Positions 12,201-21,420 of a stretch of DNA of 37,807 nt are shown one piece after another (position 1 is the first letter of the stretch; every line of letters starts with the position of its first letter). Location of the stretch: IMG/VR virus record IMGVR_UViG_3300031976_000938, positions 1-37,807 of that record, one strand, 5' to 3'. The position numbers and the translations under genes were made by a program. Source of the DNA: a virus. A model generated the notes under the pieces. It did no database searches and was not told where the DNA came from. It saw nothing but the letters and a program-made list of their open reading frames with translations.

Positions 12201-12521
12201 TTAGGGGTCGTCGGCCAGTATTCGGTCGATGTCGCCCACTTCAAAGCGGCCTTCACCGCGCCGATATTTTTCAAAAAGATCCTGCACTGCTTCATCTAAA
12301 AATGTTTTGACTGGCACGTTATCGCGACTCTTAGCACGCATCATTGTCAGCTTGCTGTGTGTGTCAGGGTGGGTGTCATACGGAACTCGCCGCAGCTTCA
12401 CTTCTTCTTTCACATCGCGCATGGCGCGCTCTACATGCTTAGGCGCTTCCTTCGGCGCTTCTGTTGCGGCTTCCTTAGCCGCCGCAGGCTTGCGCGTCGT
12501 TAGTTTTTTGCGTTCAGCCAT
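12201..12521 (-). CDS. centromere-binding protein, ParG/omega-like ribbon-helix-helix (type Ib ParB analogue), 106 aa
   Basis: Start MAERKK at 12521 overlaps the parA stop (ATGGCTGA). Basic, low-complexity N-terminal tail, then LRRVPYDTHPDTHSKLTMMRAKSRDNVPVKTFLDEAVQDLFEKY, which matches the beta-alpha-alpha pattern of TP228 ParG by eye. Confidence 0.7.
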   Translation of the reverse strand: MAERKKLTTRKPAAAKEAATEAPKEAPKHVERAMRDVKEEVKLRRVPYDTHPDTHSKLTMMRAKSRDNVPVKTFLDEAVQDLFEKYRRGEGRFEVGDIDRILADDP

Positions 12522-13149
12522 TGAGAGCCTCCAGAATTTCCTTACCCAGCGCTTCGATCTCTTGGCGAGCTTTGTCACTGGCGGGTAGGTCCATCACGCT
12601 TCCGCCTTTGGCGCAGTCTGCAAACGCCACGCGTGAGGTGGTCAGTGCTGAAAAAACGGGCAGATCGTATTCAGCCAGAGCGTCGCGGACTTCGCGCCCC
12701 AGGTGCGTATTCTTGATCGCTCGTGACACTACAAATGCCGCCTTGGGCTTTCCGTCAGTTATGTCTTGTCGAGCGTGGATCAGATCAACGACATTCTCAC
12801 AGGCGTATATATCGAACGGGCTGGGCTGACAGGGGATCAGCACGAGGTCTGCAGTCTTGATCGCGGGCGTGATCAGCTCACTGATTTGCGGCGCGCCATC
12901 CAGTATCACGTAGTCGCAGCCACCGGTCAGGCGGGGCAGGTCGCGAGCGACTTGCTTGCCCATGCCCATTACTGGGAAAACGTCCTCGCTTTCGCGTGTC
13001 TCGCTCCACTTGGTAGCACTTCTTTGTGGGTCGATATCTACAAGCGCCACTTTATAGCCTTGCTGGTGTAGCCAGCAGGCCACATTGGTGGCCATTGTGG
13101 TTTTGCCTGCCCCACCTTTTTCGTTTAGAAAGCCAATAACCTTTGTCAT
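12514..13149 (-). CDS. parA: partition ATPase ParA (deviant Walker A, small type Ib form), 211 aa
   Basis: MTKVIGFLNEKGGAGKTT Walker A motif. GAGGAGG RBS upstream of ATG 13149. The longer track ORF (to 13215) reads through the repeat array and lacks an RBS. Confidence 0.9.
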   Translation of the reverse strand: MTKVIGFLNEKGGAGKTTMATNVACWLHQQGYKVALVDIDPQRSATKWSETRESEDVFPVMGMGKQVARDLPRLTGGCDYVILDGAPQISELITPAIKTADLVLIPCQPSPFDIYACENVVDLIHARQDITDGKPKAAFVVSRAIKNTHLGREVRDALAEYDLPVFSALTTSRVAFADCAKGGSVMDLPASDKARQEIEALGKEILEALNG

Positions 13150-13177
13150 TGGTTCATACCTCCTCGGTTTCTGTGCC

Positions 13178-13217
13178 GTACAATAGTACATTAGCACAAA
13201 AGTACAAAAGTACAAAT
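13178..13217. repeat. array A: five tetramer boxes at exact 8-bp phasing (GTAC aata GTAC atta GCAC aaaa GTAC aaaa GTAC aaat) in the parA promoter region
   Basis: Boxes start at 13178, 13186, 13194, 13202 and 13210, each followed by a 4-bp A/T spacer. Read directly from the sequence. Confidence 0.7.
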
Positions 13218-13509: not shown

Positions 13510-13529
13510 TACACCCCTACCTATAGATA

Positions 13530-13603
13530 GGGCCACCTATGTATGCATACCCACCCCATACTATACGTATAGTATGGGGTGGGTATGCATACATAGGTGG
13601 CCC
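13530..13603. repeat. telomere resolution site (telRL-type): 74-bp perfect palindrome
   Basis: GGGCCACCTATGTATGCATACCCACCCCATACTATAC | GTATAGTATGGGGTGGGTATGCATACATAGGTGGCCC. The dyad centre lies between 13566 and 13567. All 37 positions of each arm were checked by hand. It lies 133 bp upstream of the protelomerase gene. Confidence 0.85.
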
Positions 13604-13610
13604 AATATAC

Positions 13611-13736: not shown

Positions 13737-15299
13737 ATGAGCGGTGAATCACGCAAAAAGGTAGATCTCGGCGAATTGATAGAATGGTTGCTGAGCGAGA
13801 TCAAAGAGATCGACGCCGATGAGGAATTGGCGCGAAAAGAGAAAACCAAGCGGCTGACGCGGCTGGCGCGTAGCTTCAAGAGCAAGCTACACGACGACAA
13901 ACGGCGCAAGGATGCTGACCGGATCGCGGTCACCACCTTCCGCCGCTACATGACTCAGGCGCGGAAAGCGGTGACTGCCCAGAACTGGCGTCATCACAGC
14001 TTTGATCAGCAGATCGAGCGGCTGGCCAGCCGCTACCCGGCATACGCGAGCCAGCTGGAGGCGATCGGCAAGCTTTCCGATATCAGCGCCATTCGTATGG
14101 CCCACCGCGAGCTGCTCGATCAGATCCGCAACGACGATGACGCTTATGAGGATATCCGGGCGATGAAGCTAGACCACGAGATCATGCGTCACCTGACGCT
14201 GAGCTCTGCCCAAAAAACCACGCTGGCTGAAGAGGCTAACGAGGTGATGGAAGAGCGGGCGGTCAACACGATCGAGCTAAATTATCACTGGCTGATAGAG
14301 ACGACTTACGAGCTGCTGAGCAATCGGGAGCGCTTGGTGGATGGCGAATATCGCGGCTTTTTCAGTTACCTAGCGCTGGGTCTAGCGCTGGCCACCGGGC
14401 GGCGGGCGATCGAGGTTTTGAAAACCGGCCGCATCACTAAGGTGGGCGAGTACGAGGTGGAATTTAGTGGCCAGGCCAAAAAGCGCGGCGGCGTCGATTA
14501 CAGCGAGGCTTACCACATCTATACGCTAGTGAAGGCTGACCTGGTTATCGAAGCCTGGGACGAGCTGCGATCGCTGCCGGAAGCCTCCGAGCTGCAGGGC
14601 ATGGAAAACAGCGACGTAAACCGGCGCACCGCCAAAACCTTGAACTCACTGACCAAGCGAGTTTTTGACGACGAGGCTCGCGTGTTCAAAGACAGCCGCG
14701 CGATCTGGGCACGCCTGGTGTTTGAGCTGCACTTCACCCGCGACAAGCGCTGGAAAAAAGTCACCGAGGATGTGTTCTGGCGCGAGATGCTTGGCCATGA
14801 GGACATGGACACCCAGCGCAGCTACCGCGCGTTTAAGATCAATTACCAGGAGCCTGAACAGGCTGACGAGGAAGATCACGAACACGGCAGCCGCCTGGAA
14901 GCGCTGCGCGCCCTGGACGGATCCGAGCAGCTTGAAAGCAGCGATGCTATGGCAAGGGTTCATGCCTGGGTTAAGTCGCAGATCGAGAAGGAGCCCGACG
15001 CCAAAATCACCCAGTCATTGATCAGCCGGGAGTTGGGCGTTTACCGGCCTGCCATCAAAGCGTACCTGGAGCTGGCGCGGGAGGCGCTCGACACGCCAAA
15101 CGTTGACATGGATAAAGTATCGGTGGCGGTGCCCAAGGCGGTGGCCGAGGCTAAGCCCCGGTTGACTCCCCACCAGCAAGGGGATGGCCGGTGGGGTTGT
15201 GTCGCTTCGATTAACGGGATCGAGGTGGCTCGGGTAGCCGACCAGGCAGGAAGGATCGAAGCGATGCGAGCCGCTTACAACGCGGCTGGCGGGCGCTGA
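13737..15299 (+). CDS. protelomerase (telomere resolvase, TelN/TelK family)
   Basis: 520 aa. ...FFSYLALGLALATGRRAIEVLKTG... and LGHEDMDTQRSYRAFKI (His...Tyr active-site pattern of Tyr-recombinase-like resolvases). Adjacent to the palindrome. Confidence 0.9.
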   Translation: MSGESRKKVDLGELIEWLLSEIKEIDADEELARKEKTKRLTRLARSFKSKLHDDKRRKDADRIAVTTFRRYMTQARKAVTAQNWRHHSFDQQIERLASRYPAYASQLEAIGKLSDISAIRMAHRELLDQIRNDDDAYEDIRAMKLDHEIMRHLTLSSAQKTTLAEEANEVMEERAVNTIELNYHWLIETTYELLSNRERLVDGEYRGFFSYLALGLALATGRRAIEVLKTGRITKVGEYEVEFSGQAKKRGGVDYSEAYHIYTLVKADLVIEAWDELRSLPEASELQGMENSDVNRRTAKTLNSLTKRVFDDEARVFKDSRAIWARLVFELHFTRDKRWKKVTEDVFWREMLGHEDMDTQRSYRAFKINYQEPEQADEEDHEHGSRLEALRALDGSEQLESSDAMARVHAWVKSQIEKEPDAKITQSLISRELGVYRPAIKAYLELAREALDTPNVDMDKVSVAVPKAVAEAKPRLTPHQQGDGRWGCVASINGIEVARVADQAGRIEAMRAAYNAAGGR

Positions 15300-15562
15300 T
15301 GTAGTGCAGCGCTAACCAGTTGCATTGATAAACAAGTAGGCATGGGCTGGCGCGGTGGCGTCAGCCCTTTTTTATGCGCTGCTGCCAGGGTCTGGCACAG
15401 CGACTGAGCTAGTGTGACGTGGTCAGCGGCATCTTGGGCCACGCTTTGAAGCGTTTGACTGTCCACGCCATCGGATTGTGATAGCAGTTGCAGCAGTGCG
15501 CTGGCCCTGGCCAGGCGCTCTTCCAGTTGATCCTGTGCCTCAAGTGCAGTTGTCTCGGTCAT
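15275..15562 (-). CDS. small helical protein downstream of repA and preceded by a LexA box; candidate SOS-controlled antirepressor
   Basis: GGGGGG RBS 8 nt upstream of ATG 15562. The first about 65 aa look like a real helical protein. The C-terminal about 30 aa read through the protelomerase terminator and 3' end, so the true 3' end is uncertain. Confidence 0.5.
   Translation of the reverse strand: MTETTALEAQDQLEERLARASALLQLLSQSDGVDSQTLQSVAQDAADHVTLAQSLCQTLAAAHKKGLTPPRQPMPTCLSMQLVSAALHQRPPAAL
15344..15373 (+). terminator. intrinsic terminator after the protelomerase gene
   Basis: GGGCTG-12 nt-CAGCCC followed by TTTTTT. Confidence 0.7.
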
Positions 15563-15588
15563 AAATTTACCCCCCTACGTTTTATGTT

Positions 15589-15608
15589 TACTGTTTAAGT
15601 ATACAGTA
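15589..15608 (-). promoter_or_regulatory. LexA (SOS) box TACTGTTTAAGTATACAGTA
   Basis: Perfect CTGT-N8-ACAG with TA flanks and an A/T-only spacer apart from one G. It abuts a GATAAT -10-like hexamer (15608..13 on the minus strand) and lies 26 nt upstream of ATG 15562. Confidence 0.75.
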
Positions 15609-15611
15609 TTA

Positions 15612-18600
15612 TCAGTGGTGCATAGGGGTCAAGCTAGTTAACTTTTTGCGCATATATTCAGCAGCATATTCAAGCGTCCACGCTAGATGCCCGGTTGCCA
15701 TCTCGTTGAAGCGGCTTAGTATTTCAGGGTTTAGGTTTGAGACCACATCCGCAAGCGGCATGGCCAGCGGCAGCTCCCGGGCCACTTCATACAGCCGCTG
15801 GATCACTGTCGTGTTGCAGTGGATCTCGTCCGCCGTGTTCCGCTTGTGCATGCCCGCTGCGAACTGAATAGCCCAAGCCAGTTGGTCCAGGTCAACGTGG
15901 CCATCGATCACGGCCTGCCGCGTTTCTTCCGGTAGCGCCCTGACCGCATCCACAAGCGACGTGTCCAAACTGAGGGGGTTTGAAGCTACCACGGCGGCGG
16001 CGTAGAGTTTTTCGCTATCGCCGAGAGAGGGATACCTTACTTCTGCTGCTGCTACCCCATCACGCAAAGTGTCCCTATGGCCTGAATCCGCGTGGTTGTC
16101 GGCTTCGTTGGCGGTTTCACGGTGCGGCGCGGCCATCGGCTGGTGGATGCTAGCGGCTTCGTGAGTGGTCAGGCTGTGCACGCCGCGTTCGGCGCGTAGG
16201 CGCACGTAATACATGACCTCTTCCCATGATTGCTCGCTGATCGATAGCACGTTACGGCCGCTGCTCTTACGCTTGTGTACGGCGAGGCCCAGGCGGTCCA
16301 TGATGGATTTAACAAACGAGGTGGCGCATTTCGGCGCTGCTTTAGGGTTAATGTACTGGCCGATTTTGAGCGCGTTATAGAGCTCGATAGCGGCCTGATT
16401 GGCCAGCAGCGTGTCGCGTACTTCGCGGCACTGATCAACATTGAATTCACCCTCGCCGGTGAGGGGATCCACACCCAGCGTCTCAAACACTTGGTTAAGC
16501 AGCCGGTGAACGGGTTTTTTCCAGCGGTGGCGGGTCAGCGTCACGCGGGCTTTGCGCTGCGCCTTGTCGTAAGCGTCGGCCTGGGCCTCAGTCGCCTGGA
16601 GCAGTTCGATAGCGGTTACGTGACGGATGCCCTGGTCGTCATAAAAATCGACGTGCTGGTCATCGATCTCGGGCACGCACAACTGGTGCTCGATGTGATG
16701 GCGGTCGATCTCCGACTGTTCCGCCTCGGACTTGATCTCCTGGCGGCTGAGGCGTGCGAAACGCTCATCATCCGGGGTTTCGACGCTATAAAGGATGTCC
16801 AACCGGCGCTGGCGTACCATAACGCCCGCCGTTTTACGGTTGGTGCGGCTCGCGGCTACTTCGCTTTCGTTAGTCGATAGGCGGTTAACTTGGTAGCCAT
16901 CCGCGATCAGCATCAACAGCAAGTGATTAGCAAAATCGTTACGCGCGCGGTTCTCGCCAGTGCTGCAGCTGAGGAACATTTCATCAAAGACCGTTTTGGT
17001 ACGGCGCAAAACGATCTCGGTGTCGGTCTCGTCAAAATCACAGCTGAGCTCGTCGGCGGCGATCAGGCCGCGGAAGAGCGCTTCGCGGTCGGTCTCACGC
17101 ATCACGCGTGAGATGCCGATGCCCACTACATAGTGGCGGGCAGTGCGGTCGCGCCGCATCATCTGAATGGCGTCAGATGGGCTCACCGTCTGGCCGCTGA
17201 AGATGCCAAAATGGCGCGTAAAATGGGGCGTGGTGATCGACACGCCGCTGGAGATCGCGGGGCTATAAATCAGTACGTCATAATTGACGGCCTCGTCGTT
17301 GGGCCGGTCGAGAAAGCGCTCGGCATCCGGGTTTGCCTTGCTCTCTTTGTGAACCAGCAGCACCTTGGCGTCTGGGCGTTTCTCCTCAATCATCACAGCC
17401 AGTTTTTTGGCGCTTTCAGCGCTGTCGTTAGCGATCAATACGCGCTCACCGGCTACCGCTGCATCAAGGGCTTTTTGCCAGACGCTCTCATGATCAGCGT
17501 GATCGATACGGATGTGGTCGTTGGCAGCGTCCACTTCGATTATGTGGATCGGCTCGCCGGGGCGTGCCATTTCGCAAAGCTCAATCAGTGAATCGTTAGC
17601 ATCCGCGTCGCACATCAACACCTGGCGTGCTGACTGCATTGCTTCGACCAGACCATCCATTACGCGCGTGGGCTGATCAACCGGGCCTGTGGCAATGTGG
17701 CGTAACACCTGGCTTGCTTCGTCGATACACAAAGTATCAACGGTCGTGAACCATGAGCGGCCATCGCCGTTATGAAATTTGGGGTGAGTAATTGAGTTAA
17801 CGCAGCAAGCCAAGTGGGATACATAAGGCATTTCGGCTGCAAGCACATTGCGATAGTGCTGGATTAGGTTTTCCGTTTTGGGCTTGCCGTTCTGGTCATA
17901 AACAACATTCCCTTTTTCATCCAACACAATATTCAGTCGGTGAGCTGCGTCGCCAACGAGTGAAACACGGTGGGCGATATAGGCGGATTTAGACGACTGC
18001 TTTAGTAGCGGTGCTATCAGTTTTTCGGTTTTACCGGCCCCCATCGGCGCGCGAACGATGACCACTCCATCTAAGGATTGAACCATGTGGCGGATGTGAT
18101 CGGGCAGCAAAATATTGCCGTGAGCAGCGCGAACGCCAGGCACTTTATGATAGTTAACGTTCGGGCGTTTCAGACCTTCAGGGGTGAAGCTGCGAAGGCC
18201 AGCGGCGCTTTCCAGCTTCTTTTTTGCCAGCCAGCAAACACGGCTGAGCAGGCGGTGACGGTTGCACGGTAGACCCTGGTTGAACGCAGCGCAGACGGTA
18301 CGGAAAACGGAGCGGCCTGTGTATTTCGTCGGTGCCAGTTGCATGCCTGCGTTGATCGCTTTCAGCGCTTCTTCCATGACGTTCATCTGGCCGGAGGCTT
18401 TGACCCGCTGCAGGCAGTAATCAAAGAACGCCTTTTCAACCGTGACTTTGCTCGCCCGCGAGCGAAGCGCTTTGGCCATGGCATCCAGGCCGATCAGGCA
18501 GTGAACATCATTCCAGTCAGTTGGATTTTTGCCGGTGGCCAGCGCTTCAGTCAGATCGTCGACATCGGGTAGCTCTTCCCAGCACGGCATCACGCTGCGC

Positions 18601-19661
18601 ACTTCTAACTCGCGGCCAACTTCTAGGGCGCGTAGCAGTCCGGCATTACCTGCCATGGGCTTCCAGCAGTCGTTATCTGCCGCATTGATCGGGCGCAGCT
18701 TGTCATTCCAGCGCTTGTACGCGCGTAGCACCTTGGGCAGGTTCTGAGCGTTCATCGCTACGATGACGCCGCACTGCTCGCCCTTGATCGCCGTTTCAGC
18801 CAGCCAGATGCTGGCACCGGTGGCGAAACCTTCACAGCTATAAACGCGCTTCGCGTCGAGGTCACCGATCAGCAGGTGAGCGCCGTCGAACTGACCGCCA
18901 CGCACGGCCACGGTGTATTTTTTGAACTGCGGGTATAGACGCTGCAGGCCGCGATAGTCGCCGTCGATGCCGTGCAGGACAAAAGCAACGAACTCGCCGT
19001 GGCGGTCGCGCATGCGTTTGAGCGTGACGACATCGATGATGCTGCCGATCTGCTTTGCTTCCAGGTAAGGCTCGCTGCCGTCCGCGTCGCCCAGTAGCTC
19101 GACGGTGTCGAACTTGCCCGGCGCGTATTCAAATGTGTGGGCCCCACCGCGATAGAACGCTTGCTCATACGCTTCATGCTCGCCCTGCAGGCGTGCCTGC
19201 TCGATGCGTTCCTGACGTTCTACCTCAGCCATGCGCGCGGCGCGCTCCGCGCGCCGTGCTTCCTGCTTGGCTAACCAGGCGTCGTGCTTGGGGTCAGTCG
19301 CTTGCCCGCCTTCGCGGCGGTGAAGCTCAAGCAGTGCGTCATAACCTGACCAAACAGCGTTATAACCGCCCTGGGCCAGGGTGTGAAAATTGACATGGGG
19401 AAATTCGATGCCGTTGCGGGCTTTCTTGAGCGAGCCGAAAACCGCGACGCGATGGCGTTCGCCTTTAGCCAGGGTGGGGATGCGACCCCGGTGCTTTTTG
19501 TCGTCGAGGCGAAGATCGGATGAGAGCGCGTCCCAGTCGACGGAGACTTCAGCAGCAACGTGGGCAATTTCTGAGTGACAATAATCAAGCAGCGCGTGGG
19601 GGTCGCTGCGGAAACGTTCTTCGTAAAAACTGGCTAAACTCTGGCGTGTGGAGCTGGTCAT
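15612..19661 (-). CDS. repA: replication protein RepA (N15 RepA-like primase-helicase), 1349 aa
   Basis: TOPRIM-like EGFATGASI...AADNDCW; Walker A APMGAGKTE; Walker B-like MCDADAND. Size and position match N15-type RepA. Start taken at MTSSTRQS (19661), because the longer track ORF reads through repeat array B. Confidence 0.9.
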   Translation of the reverse strand: MTSSTRQSLASFYEERFRSDPHALLDYCHSEIAHVAAEVSVDWDALSSDLRLDDKKHRGRIPTLAKGERHRVAVFGSLKKARNGIEFPHVNFHTLAQGGYNAVWSGYDALLELHRREGGQATDPKHDAWLAKQEARRAERAARMAEVERQERIEQARLQGEHEAYEQAFYRGGAHTFEYAPGKFDTVELLGDADGSEPYLEAKQIGSIIDVVTLKRMRDRHGEFVAFVLHGIDGDYRGLQRLYPQFKKYTVAVRGGQFDGAHLLIGDLDAKRVYSCEGFATGASIWLAETAIKGEQCGVIVAMNAQNLPKVLRAYKRWNDKLRPINAADNDCWKPMAGNAGLLRALEVGRELEVRSVMPCWEELPDVDDLTEALATGKNPTDWNDVHCLIGLDAMAKALRSRASKVTVEKAFFDYCLQRVKASGQMNVMEEALKAINAGMQLAPTKYTGRSVFRTVCAAFNQGLPCNRHRLLSRVCWLAKKKLESAAGLRSFTPEGLKRPNVNYHKVPGVRAAHGNILLPDHIRHMVQSLDGVVIVRAPMGAGKTEKLIAPLLKQSSKSAYIAHRVSLVGDAAHRLNIVLDEKGNVVYDQNGKPKTENLIQHYRNVLAAEMPYVSHLACCVNSITHPKFHNGDGRSWFTTVDTLCIDEASQVLRHIATGPVDQPTRVMDGLVEAMQSARQVLMCDADANDSLIELCEMARPGEPIHIIEVDAANDHIRIDHADHESVWQKALDAAVAGERVLIANDSAESAKKLAVMIEEKRPDAKVLLVHKESKANPDAERFLDRPNDEAVNYDVLIYSPAISSGVSITTPHFTRHFGIFSGQTVSPSDAIQMMRRDRTARHYVVGIGISRVMRETDREALFRGLIAADELSCDFDETDTEIVLRRTKTVFDEMFLSCSTGENRARNDFANHLLLMLIADGYQVNRLSTNESEVAASRTNRKTAGVMVRQRRLDILYSVETPDDERFARLSRQEIKSEAEQSEIDRHHIEHQLCVPEIDDQHVDFYDDQGIRHVTAIELLQATEAQADAYDKAQRKARVTLTRHRWKKPVHRLLNQVFETLGVDPLTGEGEFNVDQCREVRDTLLANQAAIELYNALKIGQYINPKAAPKCATSFVKSIMDRLGLAVHKRKSSGRNVLSISEQSWEEVMYYVRLRAERGVHSLTTHEAASIHQPMAAPHRETANEADNHADSGHRDTLRDGVAAAEVRYPSLGDSEKLYAAAVVASNPLSLDTSLVDAVRALPEETRQAVIDGHVDLDQLAWAIQFAAGMHKRNTADEIHCNTTVIQRLYEVARELPLAMPLADVVSNLNPEILSRFNEMATGHLAWTLEYAAEYMRKKLTSLTPMHH

Positions 19662-19679
19662 TTGTTCGTTTCGCTCTAT

Positions 19680-19715
19680 GTACTTTTGTACATTCGTACT
19701 TATGTACAAATGTCA
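19680..19715. repeat. array B: GTAC tttt GTAC attc GTAC ttat GTAC aaat GTCA, 8-bp phased, in the repA promoter/leader
   Basis: Boxes start at 19680, 19688, 19696, 19704 and 19712. A minus-strand TTGACA (19711..19716) overlaps the last box. Confidence 0.7.
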
Positions 19716-20012: not shown

Positions 20013-20657
20013 CTAACCATCTGGACTGATATCTAGTACATACCCCGTGACCACACCCGTAATACTCCACTCATCGGTGAATTTTCGCATTGGGAACTGC
20101 GGGTTTAGTGCGCTAAAAAAATCCTCAACACCGTCAGTAATGTAGCGCCTGAAGAGCGCTTTACTGGCAGCCTTAGAGAAAGCCACCACGTATTCGGAAT
20201 GCTTTGGCCGACGATCCGGCTCCACGAGAATTACGCCCAACGCGCCAAAGCTAAATGAATCGGTGGTCTGCATTGATGTATCCGTTACGTCCAGCGCAAA
20301 TGCATACTCACTCATTGTGTGAGGCGGTGAAACCCAGCGCTGAGGCTTTGAAACGCCCGGTTGATAGCCGTACTCCAAAGTGTGGTAGTCGCTCCAGGCA
20401 ACAACCGGGACCAGGCGCCGACGCTCTACAGGCAGAGAAAAACTGTGATCGCCTTCAGCCATCGACAGTATGTCGTCGACGGTTACGCCAAGGCTGCGAG
20501 CAATCGATGCGGCCAGATGAACGTTTGGCGTCATCTGGTCGCGCTCAATTTTAGATAAGTAGCCAGTATGGATTTGCCCTCCAGTAGCATCACAAAGCTG
20601 CTGGAGTGTTTTTCCCTGGGCGTGGCGCAAGCGCCTGATCACGTGTCCGATTTTCAT
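20013..20657 (-). CDS. CI-like prophage repressor (XRE HTH plus S24 LexA/CI-type C-terminal domain)
   Basis: N-terminal IRRLRHAQGKTLQQLCDATGGQIHTGYLSKIERD (HTH). The C-terminal domain aligns without gaps to lambda CI from RWVS to LNPQ(Y/F)PM. Confidence 0.9.
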   Translation of the reverse strand: MKIGHVIRRLRHAQGKTLQQLCDATGGQIHTGYLSKIERDQMTPNVHLAASIARSLGVTVDDILSMAEGDHSFSLPVERRRLVPVVAWSDYHTLEYGYQPGVSKPQRWVSPPHTMSEYAFALDVTDTSMQTTDSFSFGALGVILVEPDRRPKHSEYVVAFSKAASKALFRRYITDGVEDFFSALNPQFPMRKFTDEWSITGVVTGYVLDISPDG

Positions 20658-20796
20658 TGTTCAATTCTCCGCCGCCATTCTGCATAAAAGCAAAGTCTTA
20701 TTGGAAACACTATTGCGGTTTATTCTTCTAATAAGCAGAATGTGGGGACGCCCACACTAGATGGGCTTAGTGCATAACTAAAAAAGGATGGTTGTC

Positions 20797-21420
20797 ATGT
20801 CATCAAAGCCCTCATCAAAACCGCGCACTGAGTGCGACGTCATCATCAAAGCGACTCTGGATTGGTTCACGAATAGCCGTGAATCGATCGAGTCGTTTTC
20901 CACGATCCACTTGATCCCGGCGCTGGAACGCCAGGGCATGATGGAATTAAACCGCGAAGAGGTTGAGCGCAATACCGATAACTATTTGCGGTGGCGGCGC
21001 AGCGTCTCGATGAAAGTCGGCAGGATCATTCGCGGCGACCAGCCGTTTCCCCTCGCTTGGAAATGGCCGTGGATCAGCCTTTTGCCTGAGCAGTACCAGG
21101 TGGAAGTTCGCCGGGAGCTGATGGCCATGGCCGGTTCGCTCTATGTGCCGGTGCCCCGCTTCTCAGCCGTTGACGATCTCGCCCGCGTTCAATCACAGCT
21201 TCACCGGATCAGCCAAGAGTTTGGTGAGTTGCTGCAGTACGCCCAACCAGCACATAACGGCGGCTATGACCGTAACGATTGCCCTGCACAGGTTGATCGA
21301 ATGATGAAAGAGGCCGTTGACCTGGTGGAAGTGCTGCTGAGCGAAGTGGCGGCGGTGAGCCGTGGTACCGGGCGGCCGCTGCCGCGTATGACGATGATCG
21401 CTTTCGGTATGGGGGAATGA
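20797..21420 (+). CDS. first rightward (early) gene, 207 aa, unknown function; faint resemblance to phage CII/CP76-type regulators
   Basis: Divergent from cI. AAGGA RBS 8 nt upstream of ATG 20797 (the track ORF starts at 20788). No HTH is obvious by eye. Confidence 0.7.
   Translation: MSSKPSSKPRTECDVIIKATLDWFTNSRESIESFSTIHLIPALERQGMMELNREEVERNTDNYLRWRRSVSMKVGRIIRGDQPFPLAWKWPWISLLPEQYQVEVRRELMAMAGSLYVPVPRFSAVDDLARVQSQLHRISQEFGELLQYAQPAHNGGYDRNDCPAQVDRMMKEAVDLVEVLLSEVAAVSRGTGRPLPRMTMIAFGMGE

Follow-up and report, generated by a model that had tools for sequence, protein, structure and literature searches.

How can a prophage answer DNA damage when its repressor has probably lost the ability to cleave itself? 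The question is raised by a locus in IMG/VR virus record IMGVR_UViG_3300031976_000938, of which positions 1 to 37,807 were analysed (37,807 nucleotides (nt); hereafter the window). Here, a perfect match to the LexA (SOS) box precedes a small open reading frame (ORF) of 95 amino acids (aa), which lies between the replication gene repA and the protelomerase gene telN. Our reading, to which we assign a probability of roughly 0.65, is that this ORF encodes a LexA-repressed small antirepressor, through which SOS induces a phage with a repressor no longer capable of self-cleavage. The original prediction for this stretch, that the ORF acts as the induction trigger, thereby gains computational support from four sides: conservation of the box, purifying selection on the ORF, a degenerate repressor in a mitomycin C-inducible group of phages, and a position that in vibriophage VP882 holds the antirepressor gene qtip.

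By its sequence, the window belongs to a linear-plasmid (telomere) phage of the phiHAP-1 type. The 4-kb stretch around the locus is 79.8% identical to Halomonas phage phiHAP-1 and matches VP882 more weakly, both of these being Hapunavirus linear-plasmid ('telomere') phages, and the local gene order agrees with phiHAP-1 ORF33-38.

We infer LexA binding, the target of the small protein and its effect on that target from the sequence, and propose the following course of events. In the lysogen, LexA would occupy the box over the -10 and transcription start region, just past the repA stop codon, and keep the promoter shut. DNA damage would generate activated RecA (RecA*), LexA would cleave itself and the promoter would fire. 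The small acidic protein, a predicted helical hairpin, would then bind the cI-like repressor. Contact would most likely be made with the repressor's conserved N-terminal DNA-binding domain, to which Qtip binds in VP882. Displacement of the repressor from its operators would release the cII/Q lytic cascade.

A predicted LexA site overlaps a candidate promoter

The elements on which this reading turns are as follows.

15589..15608, strandless: LexA (SOS) box TACTGTTTAAGTATACAGTA, a 20-mer of the gammaproteobacterial CTGT-N8-ACAG type
15275..15562, minus strand: small ORF, 95 aa, homologue of phiHAP-1 ORF35 (HAPgp35)
15575..15570, minus strand: Shine-Dalgarno-like GGGGGG, 7 nt before the ATG
15632..15605, minus strand: candidate sigma-70 promoter TTGACC-16 nt-AATACT, from a consensus scan (9/12 matches)
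15612..19709, minus strand: repA (maximal ORF), primase-helicase replication protein, phrog_4913 'replication' (E=0), homologue HAPgp36
13737..15299, plus strand: protelomerase telN with the Pfam domains ResT-TelK_cat, TelK_N and stirrup, homologue phiHAP-1 gp34
15344..15373, plus strand: intrinsic terminator of telN from a terminator scan (10-bp stem and T6), inside the small ORF

The 20-mer TACTGTTTAAGTATACAGTA reads at exactly 15589..15608, where a perfect CTGT-N8-ACAG had been claimed, and the remaining coordinates and motifs of the original prediction (GATAAT, GGGGGG, TTGACC, the ATG and the 95-aa ORF) all proved correct on re-reading. CTGT-N8-ACAG is the established LexA motif of gammaproteobacteria, and presumably that of Halomonas. 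The box starts 3 nt past the repA stop codon (15614..15612; the minus strand reads TGA-TAA-TACTGT) and ends 26 nt ahead of the ATG of the small ORF (15562..15560).

A motif of this kind could arise by chance, as a palindrome without function. Its 16-nt core occurs once in the window, making this the only LexA box there, and at least one copy turned up in 28 of 100 shuffled sequences (mean 0.31), so that the core by itself is not significant. The full 20-mer, however, is at most 3 mismatches away from the Escherichia coli consensus TACTGTATATATATACAGTA, a proximity reached in 0/100 shuffles, and the comparative data below effectively refute a chance origin.

Upstream of the small ORF, the consensus scan places the -35 hexamer TTGACC (15632..15627) within the repA coding sequence, and the -10 hexamer AATACT shares bases with the left half of the LexA box. 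An alternative -10, GATAAT (15613..15608), had been put forward originally; it does share bases with the repA stop codon and with the first base of the box, but is probably not the -10 in use, because TTGACC lies only 13 nt upstream of it and AATACT or TACTGT, at 16-18 nt, are better spaced. We dropped it on the basis of the consensus scan and of distant relatives, in which -35-like TTGCCC or TTGCCA hexamers stand 16-18 nt from TACTGT. The -10 is thus more likely to lie inside or across the left half-site of the box. Whichever -10 holds, LexA on the box would cover both it and the start site, giving the predicted LexA site the promoter-covering position typical of LexA-controlled antirepressor genes. 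The ribosome-binding site is kept in relatives as GGGGGG, GGGAGG or AGGGAGG.

The box is conserved among telomere phages

The same region was taken from 13 relatives (IMG/VR and contigs encoding close homologues), yielding an alignment of 12 distinct sequences. Only 1 of the 20 box columns varies, as against fractions of 0.59 in the repA 3' end, 0.65 in the 26-nt spacer between box and ATG, and 0.48 in the ORF. The box is therefore the best-conserved element of the locus. Both ORF and box are kept in this alignment, in distant family members and in prophages.

When 1.84 billion representative proteins were searched with a profile, no more than five genuine small relatives came up, each from this slot, including four further ones (36-60% identity) encoded between a repA-like gene and telN; the other matches were short stretches within long proteins. 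In the four distant members the box lies 24-27 nt upstream of the ATG (for example TACTGTATAATCGTACAGTA, TACTGTATAATTATACAGTG and TACTGTATACTCGTACAGTA), with flanks that are otherwise unalignable. Scanning genome contigs with the small-ORF profile gave no confirmed locus.

We also used TelN as an anchor, which provided 41 IMG/VR loci with TelN identities of 47-88%, 40 of them analysable. In 35 of the 40, a short telN-repA slot (<400 nt) contains a single minus-strand ORF of 84-100 aa. A perfect CTGT-N8-ACAG abuts the repA stop in 31 of these 35 short slots, which belong to Halomonas- and Pseudomonas-type telomere phages; by eye, the upstream sequence of the other four holds an apparent one-mismatch box, CTGT-N8-CCAG, L052 giving a partial match only. 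That a box should recur at the same place across some 50% TelN divergence, with one variable column amid flanks at about 0.5-0.65, is what leaves the chance palindrome with next to no credit. The same arrangement is found in isolate genomes of Halomonas getboli, Halomonas sp. KAO, Stutzerimonas kunmingensis, Pseudomonas cuatrocienegasensis and P. frederiksbergensis; the hosts Halomonas, Pseudomonas and Stutzerimonas are gammaproteobacteria.

In Pseudomonas-type phages, the small ORFs fall into separate sequence families that are interlinked (hhalign probabilities 70-99%) and have no significant link to the ORF35 family (family A), to which the window ORF belongs. Thus, slot and LexA box are conserved while the protein sequences diverge.

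At four loci the slot exceeds 1 kb and holds other cargo. In L058 and L059 (L058 9600..10700) this consists of a 172-aa hydrophobic, membrane-protein-like ORF and a 102-aa repeat-containing ORF; in L062 (1726..2865) we recognize, by eye, an XRE-type helix-turn-helix (HTH) protein, a 54-aa ORF and a recombinase-like fragment. The small ORFs of L058 and L062 have no LexA box, and the L058 repressor carries Arg at the catalytic Lys position. A further locus, L065, stems from a 36-kb contig deposited under 'Spirulina subsalsa FACHB-351' (NZ_JAIHOM010000047.1) that carries a Halomonas-type telomere phage with a 75% identical TelN, a family A small ORF and a LexA box; most likely, this phage contig comes from a co-cultured heterotroph and not from the cyanobacterium.

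The small ORF is a gene under purifying selection

The small ORF is 76% identical to HAPgp35, the product of phiHAP-1 ORF35 (annotated 'hypothetical protein'), and phiHAP-1 was the sole match when the window ORF was compared with phages by tblastn. Searches of Pfam, PHROGs and NCBIfam returned no match. The ORF encodes a member of an uncharacterised small-protein family that is confined to phiHAP-1-like phages.

The gene converges on telN and its last 25 nt overlap the telN 3' end. We therefore estimated the ratio of non-synonymous to synonymous substitution (dN/dS) for codons 1-65, which are clear of both the overlap and the telN terminator. Pairwise values against eight relatives are 0.07-0.26, with dS up to 1.3. 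The small ORF is a real gene under purifying selection.

This result bears on the idea that the LexA promoter matters for its transcription alone, either antisense or convergent into telN or as a roadblock at the repA end, the ORF being incidental. Transcription from this promoter necessarily continues, in antisense, into the 3' end of telN. No minus-strand terminator follows the ORF in the scanned region, and the tail of the ORF overlaps both the telN terminator and the telN stop codon. Nevertheless, low dN/dS in the presence of saturated synonymous change shows selection on the protein, every family has a strong ribosome-binding site at conserved spacing, and an ORF length of 84-100 aa is held across unrelated sequence families. 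Together, these observations make an incidental ORF very unlikely.

An AlphaFold2 (AF2) model built from an 11-sequence alignment predicts two helices, at residues 3-29 and 35-64, with a predicted local distance difference test (pLDDT) score of about 77-81, and a tail (67-95) below 50. The predicted hairpin (residues 1-64) is acidic, with an isoelectric point of 4.2, and the tail is basic. In the tail, dN/dS is 0.13-0.51, and its sequence diverges in distant members; residues 67-95 may be a functionless overprint on the telN terminator and stop.

The telN terminator (15344..15367 and the T-run) is present in all family A members, and its T-run is read in the small ORF as the Lys-Lys codons of 'KKG'. 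Because the terminator lies inside the small ORF, the small-ORF mRNA should contain a stable hairpin near codons 64-74. Even distant family A members keep both the terminator hairpin and the 'KKG/QKG...QP' motif.

The repressor probably cannot cleave itself

The repressor gene is the following.

20013..20657, minus strand: cI-like prophage repressor, HTH_3 and degenerate S24 domains (Pfam and PHROG matches)

The 214-aa product has HTH_3 and Peptidase_S24 domains by Pfam. In an alignment with lambda cI, LexA and VP882 cI, the nucleophilic Ser is kept (DTSM) and the general-base Lys (lambda K192, VP882 K172) is replaced by Arg (FRRY); Ala-Gly and Cys-Gly dipeptides are absent from the whole protein. 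With neither a cleavage site nor the Lys, the repressor is probably unable to answer RecA by self-cleavage, and the phage would share a non-cleavable main repressor with those known to use LexA-controlled antirepressors.

The Lys-to-Arg change and the missing Ala-Gly are common to the repressors of all Halomonas-type relatives. In the Pseudomonas-type repressors, Ala-Gly has given way to Ala-Ala, Ala-Ser or Ala-Thr, and the Ser is often exchanged for Thr, Gly or Leu. Among the repressors recovered from loci with a boxed slot, none combines Ala-Gly, Ser and Lys; cI was recovered from part of these loci (L027 and L046, for example, yielded none). The repressors of the Pseudomonas/Stutzerimonas-type loci L032-L057 and L067-L070 keep the Lys, a different path to an inactive S24 domain from that of the Halomonas type.

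Mitomycin C induction has been reported for relatives of the window phage, namely phiHAP-1 and HMP1 (92% average nucleotide identity to each other), and the HMP1 paper notes repressor differences from phiHAP-1. Given an inducible group with degenerate repressors, some route from SOS to the repressor must exist. The absence of both Ala-Gly site and catalytic Lys points to a shift of SOS sensing from autoproteolysis to LexA control of the small gene.

A variant of this would be a dual input, with the ORF as an auxiliary antirepressor and the repressor still cleaved through a non-canonical site with Arg as the base. Halomonas-type repressors do retain the S24 fold and the nucleophilic Ser, and VP882, of the same genus, uses both routes: its cI has the full motif set and is cleaved with RecA*. 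But the G92D, S130A and K172A variants of VP882 cI each remain uncleaved, so that either G92D or K172A alone abolishes what the window repressor would have to achieve with no Ala-Gly or Cys-Gly and an Arg, and the loss of motifs is consistent across the repressors recovered from boxed-slot loci. We regard residual cleavage as improbable.

Evidence against an antirepressor role

Several observations weigh against an SOS-gated antirepressor. As far as sequence comparison goes, the small protein has no statistically secure homology to any validated antirepressor. BLASTP of the window ORF against Qtip gave no match, and hhalign of the ORF35 family against Qtip produced one collinear 52-column alignment that spans both helices and is weak (P=0.014-0.02, probability 2-3%). 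A Foldseek search of the AF2 model against BFVD found nothing below E=0.6; the model itself is of moderate confidence (mean pLDDT 65), and its fold, a helical hairpin, is generic. The suggestion of a new antirepressor family was a fair one in this light, with the domain and family databases empty, BLASTP against Qtip and the boxed ORF of phage N15 equally so, and the collinear likeness to Qtip faint.

Transcription raises a second difficulty. The small ORF lies 49 nt downstream of repA in the same direction, and a scan of 15563..15614 detected no terminator between them, which means that read-through from repA in the lysogen must be tolerated or blocked. LexA acting as a roadblock, or a titration threshold, could keep read-through harmless; both are guesses.

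A third point concerns the presumed target. The repressor retains its S24 fold and Ser, and with Arg in place of Lys it may not be wholly inactive. Moreover, at one related locus (L017) the small protein is 98% identical to that of the window over residues 1-65, yet the repressors are only 57% identical in the N-terminal and 30% in the C-terminal domain. The two genes thus do not visibly co-evolve. If the small protein binds cI, it should use a conserved N-terminal surface or have broad specificity, as Gifsy antirepressors do; otherwise it has another target. More generally, cI alleles are mosaic: in phages with 94-98% identical small ORFs, cI is 30-57% identical, with the C-terminal domain most divergent (compared were L017 878..1543, L001 12954..13658 and window 20013..20657).

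Some of these points would also fit a LexA-regulated gene whose product has another job, whether as an SOS-timed host-takeover or cell-division inhibitor, as a modulator of RecA or LexA (of the DinI or GIL01 gp7 type), or as a regulator of RepA or TelN in the lytic switch. Besides the missing homology and the exchange of the repressor allele alongside a small ORF that remains 98% identical, the location is compatible with this, as the ORF is wedged between, and overlaps with, two genes for plasmid maintenance, repA and telN. Such a product would leave the link from SOS to the repressor unexplained, however, and that link is needed in a mitomycin C-inducible group whose repressors have no cleavage site and/or catalytic residues; the only LexA box of the window is here, and in VP882 and Vibrio phage 72 this slot is occupied by proven antirepressors. 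We consider another job unlikely and prefer the antirepressor.

Neighbouring features

Further features around the locus are listed below.

12514..13215, minus strand: parA
13524..13609: telomere palindrome, 86 bp, near-perfect, two 43-nt arms with 95% complementarity and no spacer
20788..21420, plus strand: cII-like activator

The palindrome lies 127 nt upstream of telN and has further partial inverted repeats on its flanks. It is presumably telRL, the target of the protelomerase, and the counterpart of the repeat_region annotated in phiHAP-1. An Rfam search of 15000..15900 gave no match.

Implications

If the small ORF is an SOS-gated antirepressor, it would supply a concrete induction switch for phiHAP-1-type marine and soil telomere phages, in which ORF35 has been 'hypothetical' since 2008. 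The regulatory logic is already known; the protein family is the uncharacterised part. The locus would also join two separate literatures, one on SOS-controlled antirepressors (Tum, AntC, Gifsy) and one on repA-telN small-protein modules, which have been described as SOS-independent inputs. The latter comprise Qtip and the modules of a transcription factor (TF) and a small ORF (smORF) in linear plasmid-like phages (Silpe & Bassler 2019; Silpe et al. 2020, 2023). Phages with non-proteolytic repressors were deliberately excluded from that work, phiHAP-1 appearing in its sequence list without discussion (Silpe et al. 2023). Our locus suggests what the phages thus set aside do: they may use this slot, too, for a small protein of this kind, but wire it to host LexA. 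The repeated, lineage-specific decay of S24 (Lys-to-Arg with no Ala-Gly in Halomonas; Ala-Ala with Ser-to-Thr/Gly/Leu in Pseudomonas) would then be a natural experiment on the relocation of a damage sensor. Of most interest is the further possibility that LexA-wired and quorum-sensing-wired small proteins are versions of one device.

Comparison with known systems

Among linear-plasmid prophages with a small LexA-controlled gene and a non-cleavable main repressor, the precedent is AntC of coliphage N15 (Mardanov & Ravin 2007). According to the literature, N15 induction begins with LexA-controlled antC acting on the non-cleavable repressor CB. The only strong box that we find in N15, CCCTGTGTTTATATACAGTA (NC_001901 39562..39581), precedes by 22 nt an acidic ORF of 75 aa that is unannotated and has a terminator behind it, the same layout of box and small acidic ORF as in the window. 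Box and ORF span NC_001901 39562..39828 (L004 4063..4332). Judged by its box, the ORF is probably antC, although the RefSeq record has no feature there; its phiKO2 homologue is annotated Gp47. The two systems differ in location: the N15 gene belongs to the right arm, where genes 47 and 48 flank it, and lies outside the repA-telN slot, and a LexA box sought in the N15 repA-telN region was not found. They differ also in the repressor, CB being altogether without Ser, Lys and cleavage site, and BLASTP of the window ORF against the N15 boxed ORF (the N15/phiKO2 gp47 type) gave no alignment at E<=100.

Tum of coliphage 186 and GfoA, GfhA and GftA of the Salmonella Gifsy phages are likewise encoded by LexA-controlled antirepressor genes outside the immunity region and target non-cleavable repressors. 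The phage types and the proteins are unrelated, Tum for instance having 146 aa with a DinI-like half, and no Pfam or PHROG match ties the window ORF to the Tum or Gifsy antirepressors.

The closest counterpart in position and form is Qtip. The repA-telN slot is known to house antirepressor modules composed of a transcription factor and a small protein (Silpe et al. 2023). In VP882, qtip (gp55) is immediately convergent with telN, and the phage-encoded vqmA lies between qtip and repA. The window ORF shares genus (Hapunavirus), slot and orientation with qtip: it lies between convergent repA and telN, and both small genes converge on, and overlap, the telN 3' end. The proteins are also alike in size, in acidity and in a predicted two-helix hairpin (about 27 and 30 residues) with a disordered tail; in the AF2 model of Qtip, the hairpin comprises residues 9-34 and 41-69. 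By contrast, the window has no adjacent transcription factor, the 49 nt between ORF and repA being too short for any ORF, and control by a host LexA box would stand in for control by phage VqmA. VP882 cI is autoproteolytic, whereas the window repressor has neither cleavage site nor Lys.

Qtip binds the N-terminal domain of cI, with cI R11 required for recognition, and D13 of Qtip is the one residue at which substitution by Ala stops cI from being inactivated. The weak hhalign alignment places Qtip D13 on D11 of the small protein and L28 on L26, D11 being invariant in 15/15 family members and L26 invariant as well. On the other side of the presumed interface, the N-terminal domain of the window repressor shares 53% identity with its VP882 counterpart and retains R8-R9-L10-R11. 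Common ancestry of the small ORF and Qtip is possible but unproven. A more tentative proposal, which we think doubtful at present, is that the slot is an exchangeable 'sensory input port', based on a single ancestral hairpin of the Qtip kind that docks on the conserved N-terminal domain of cI. The LexA form, found in 31-35 of the 40 loci, would be the majority and probably ancestral form, coupled to S24 decay, and VqmA-Qtip of VP882, with its cleavable cI, would be derived. By analogy, the locus would work on the principle known from AntC of N15, Tum of 186 and the antirepressors of the Gifsy phages; its location and the shape of its product are those of Qtip.

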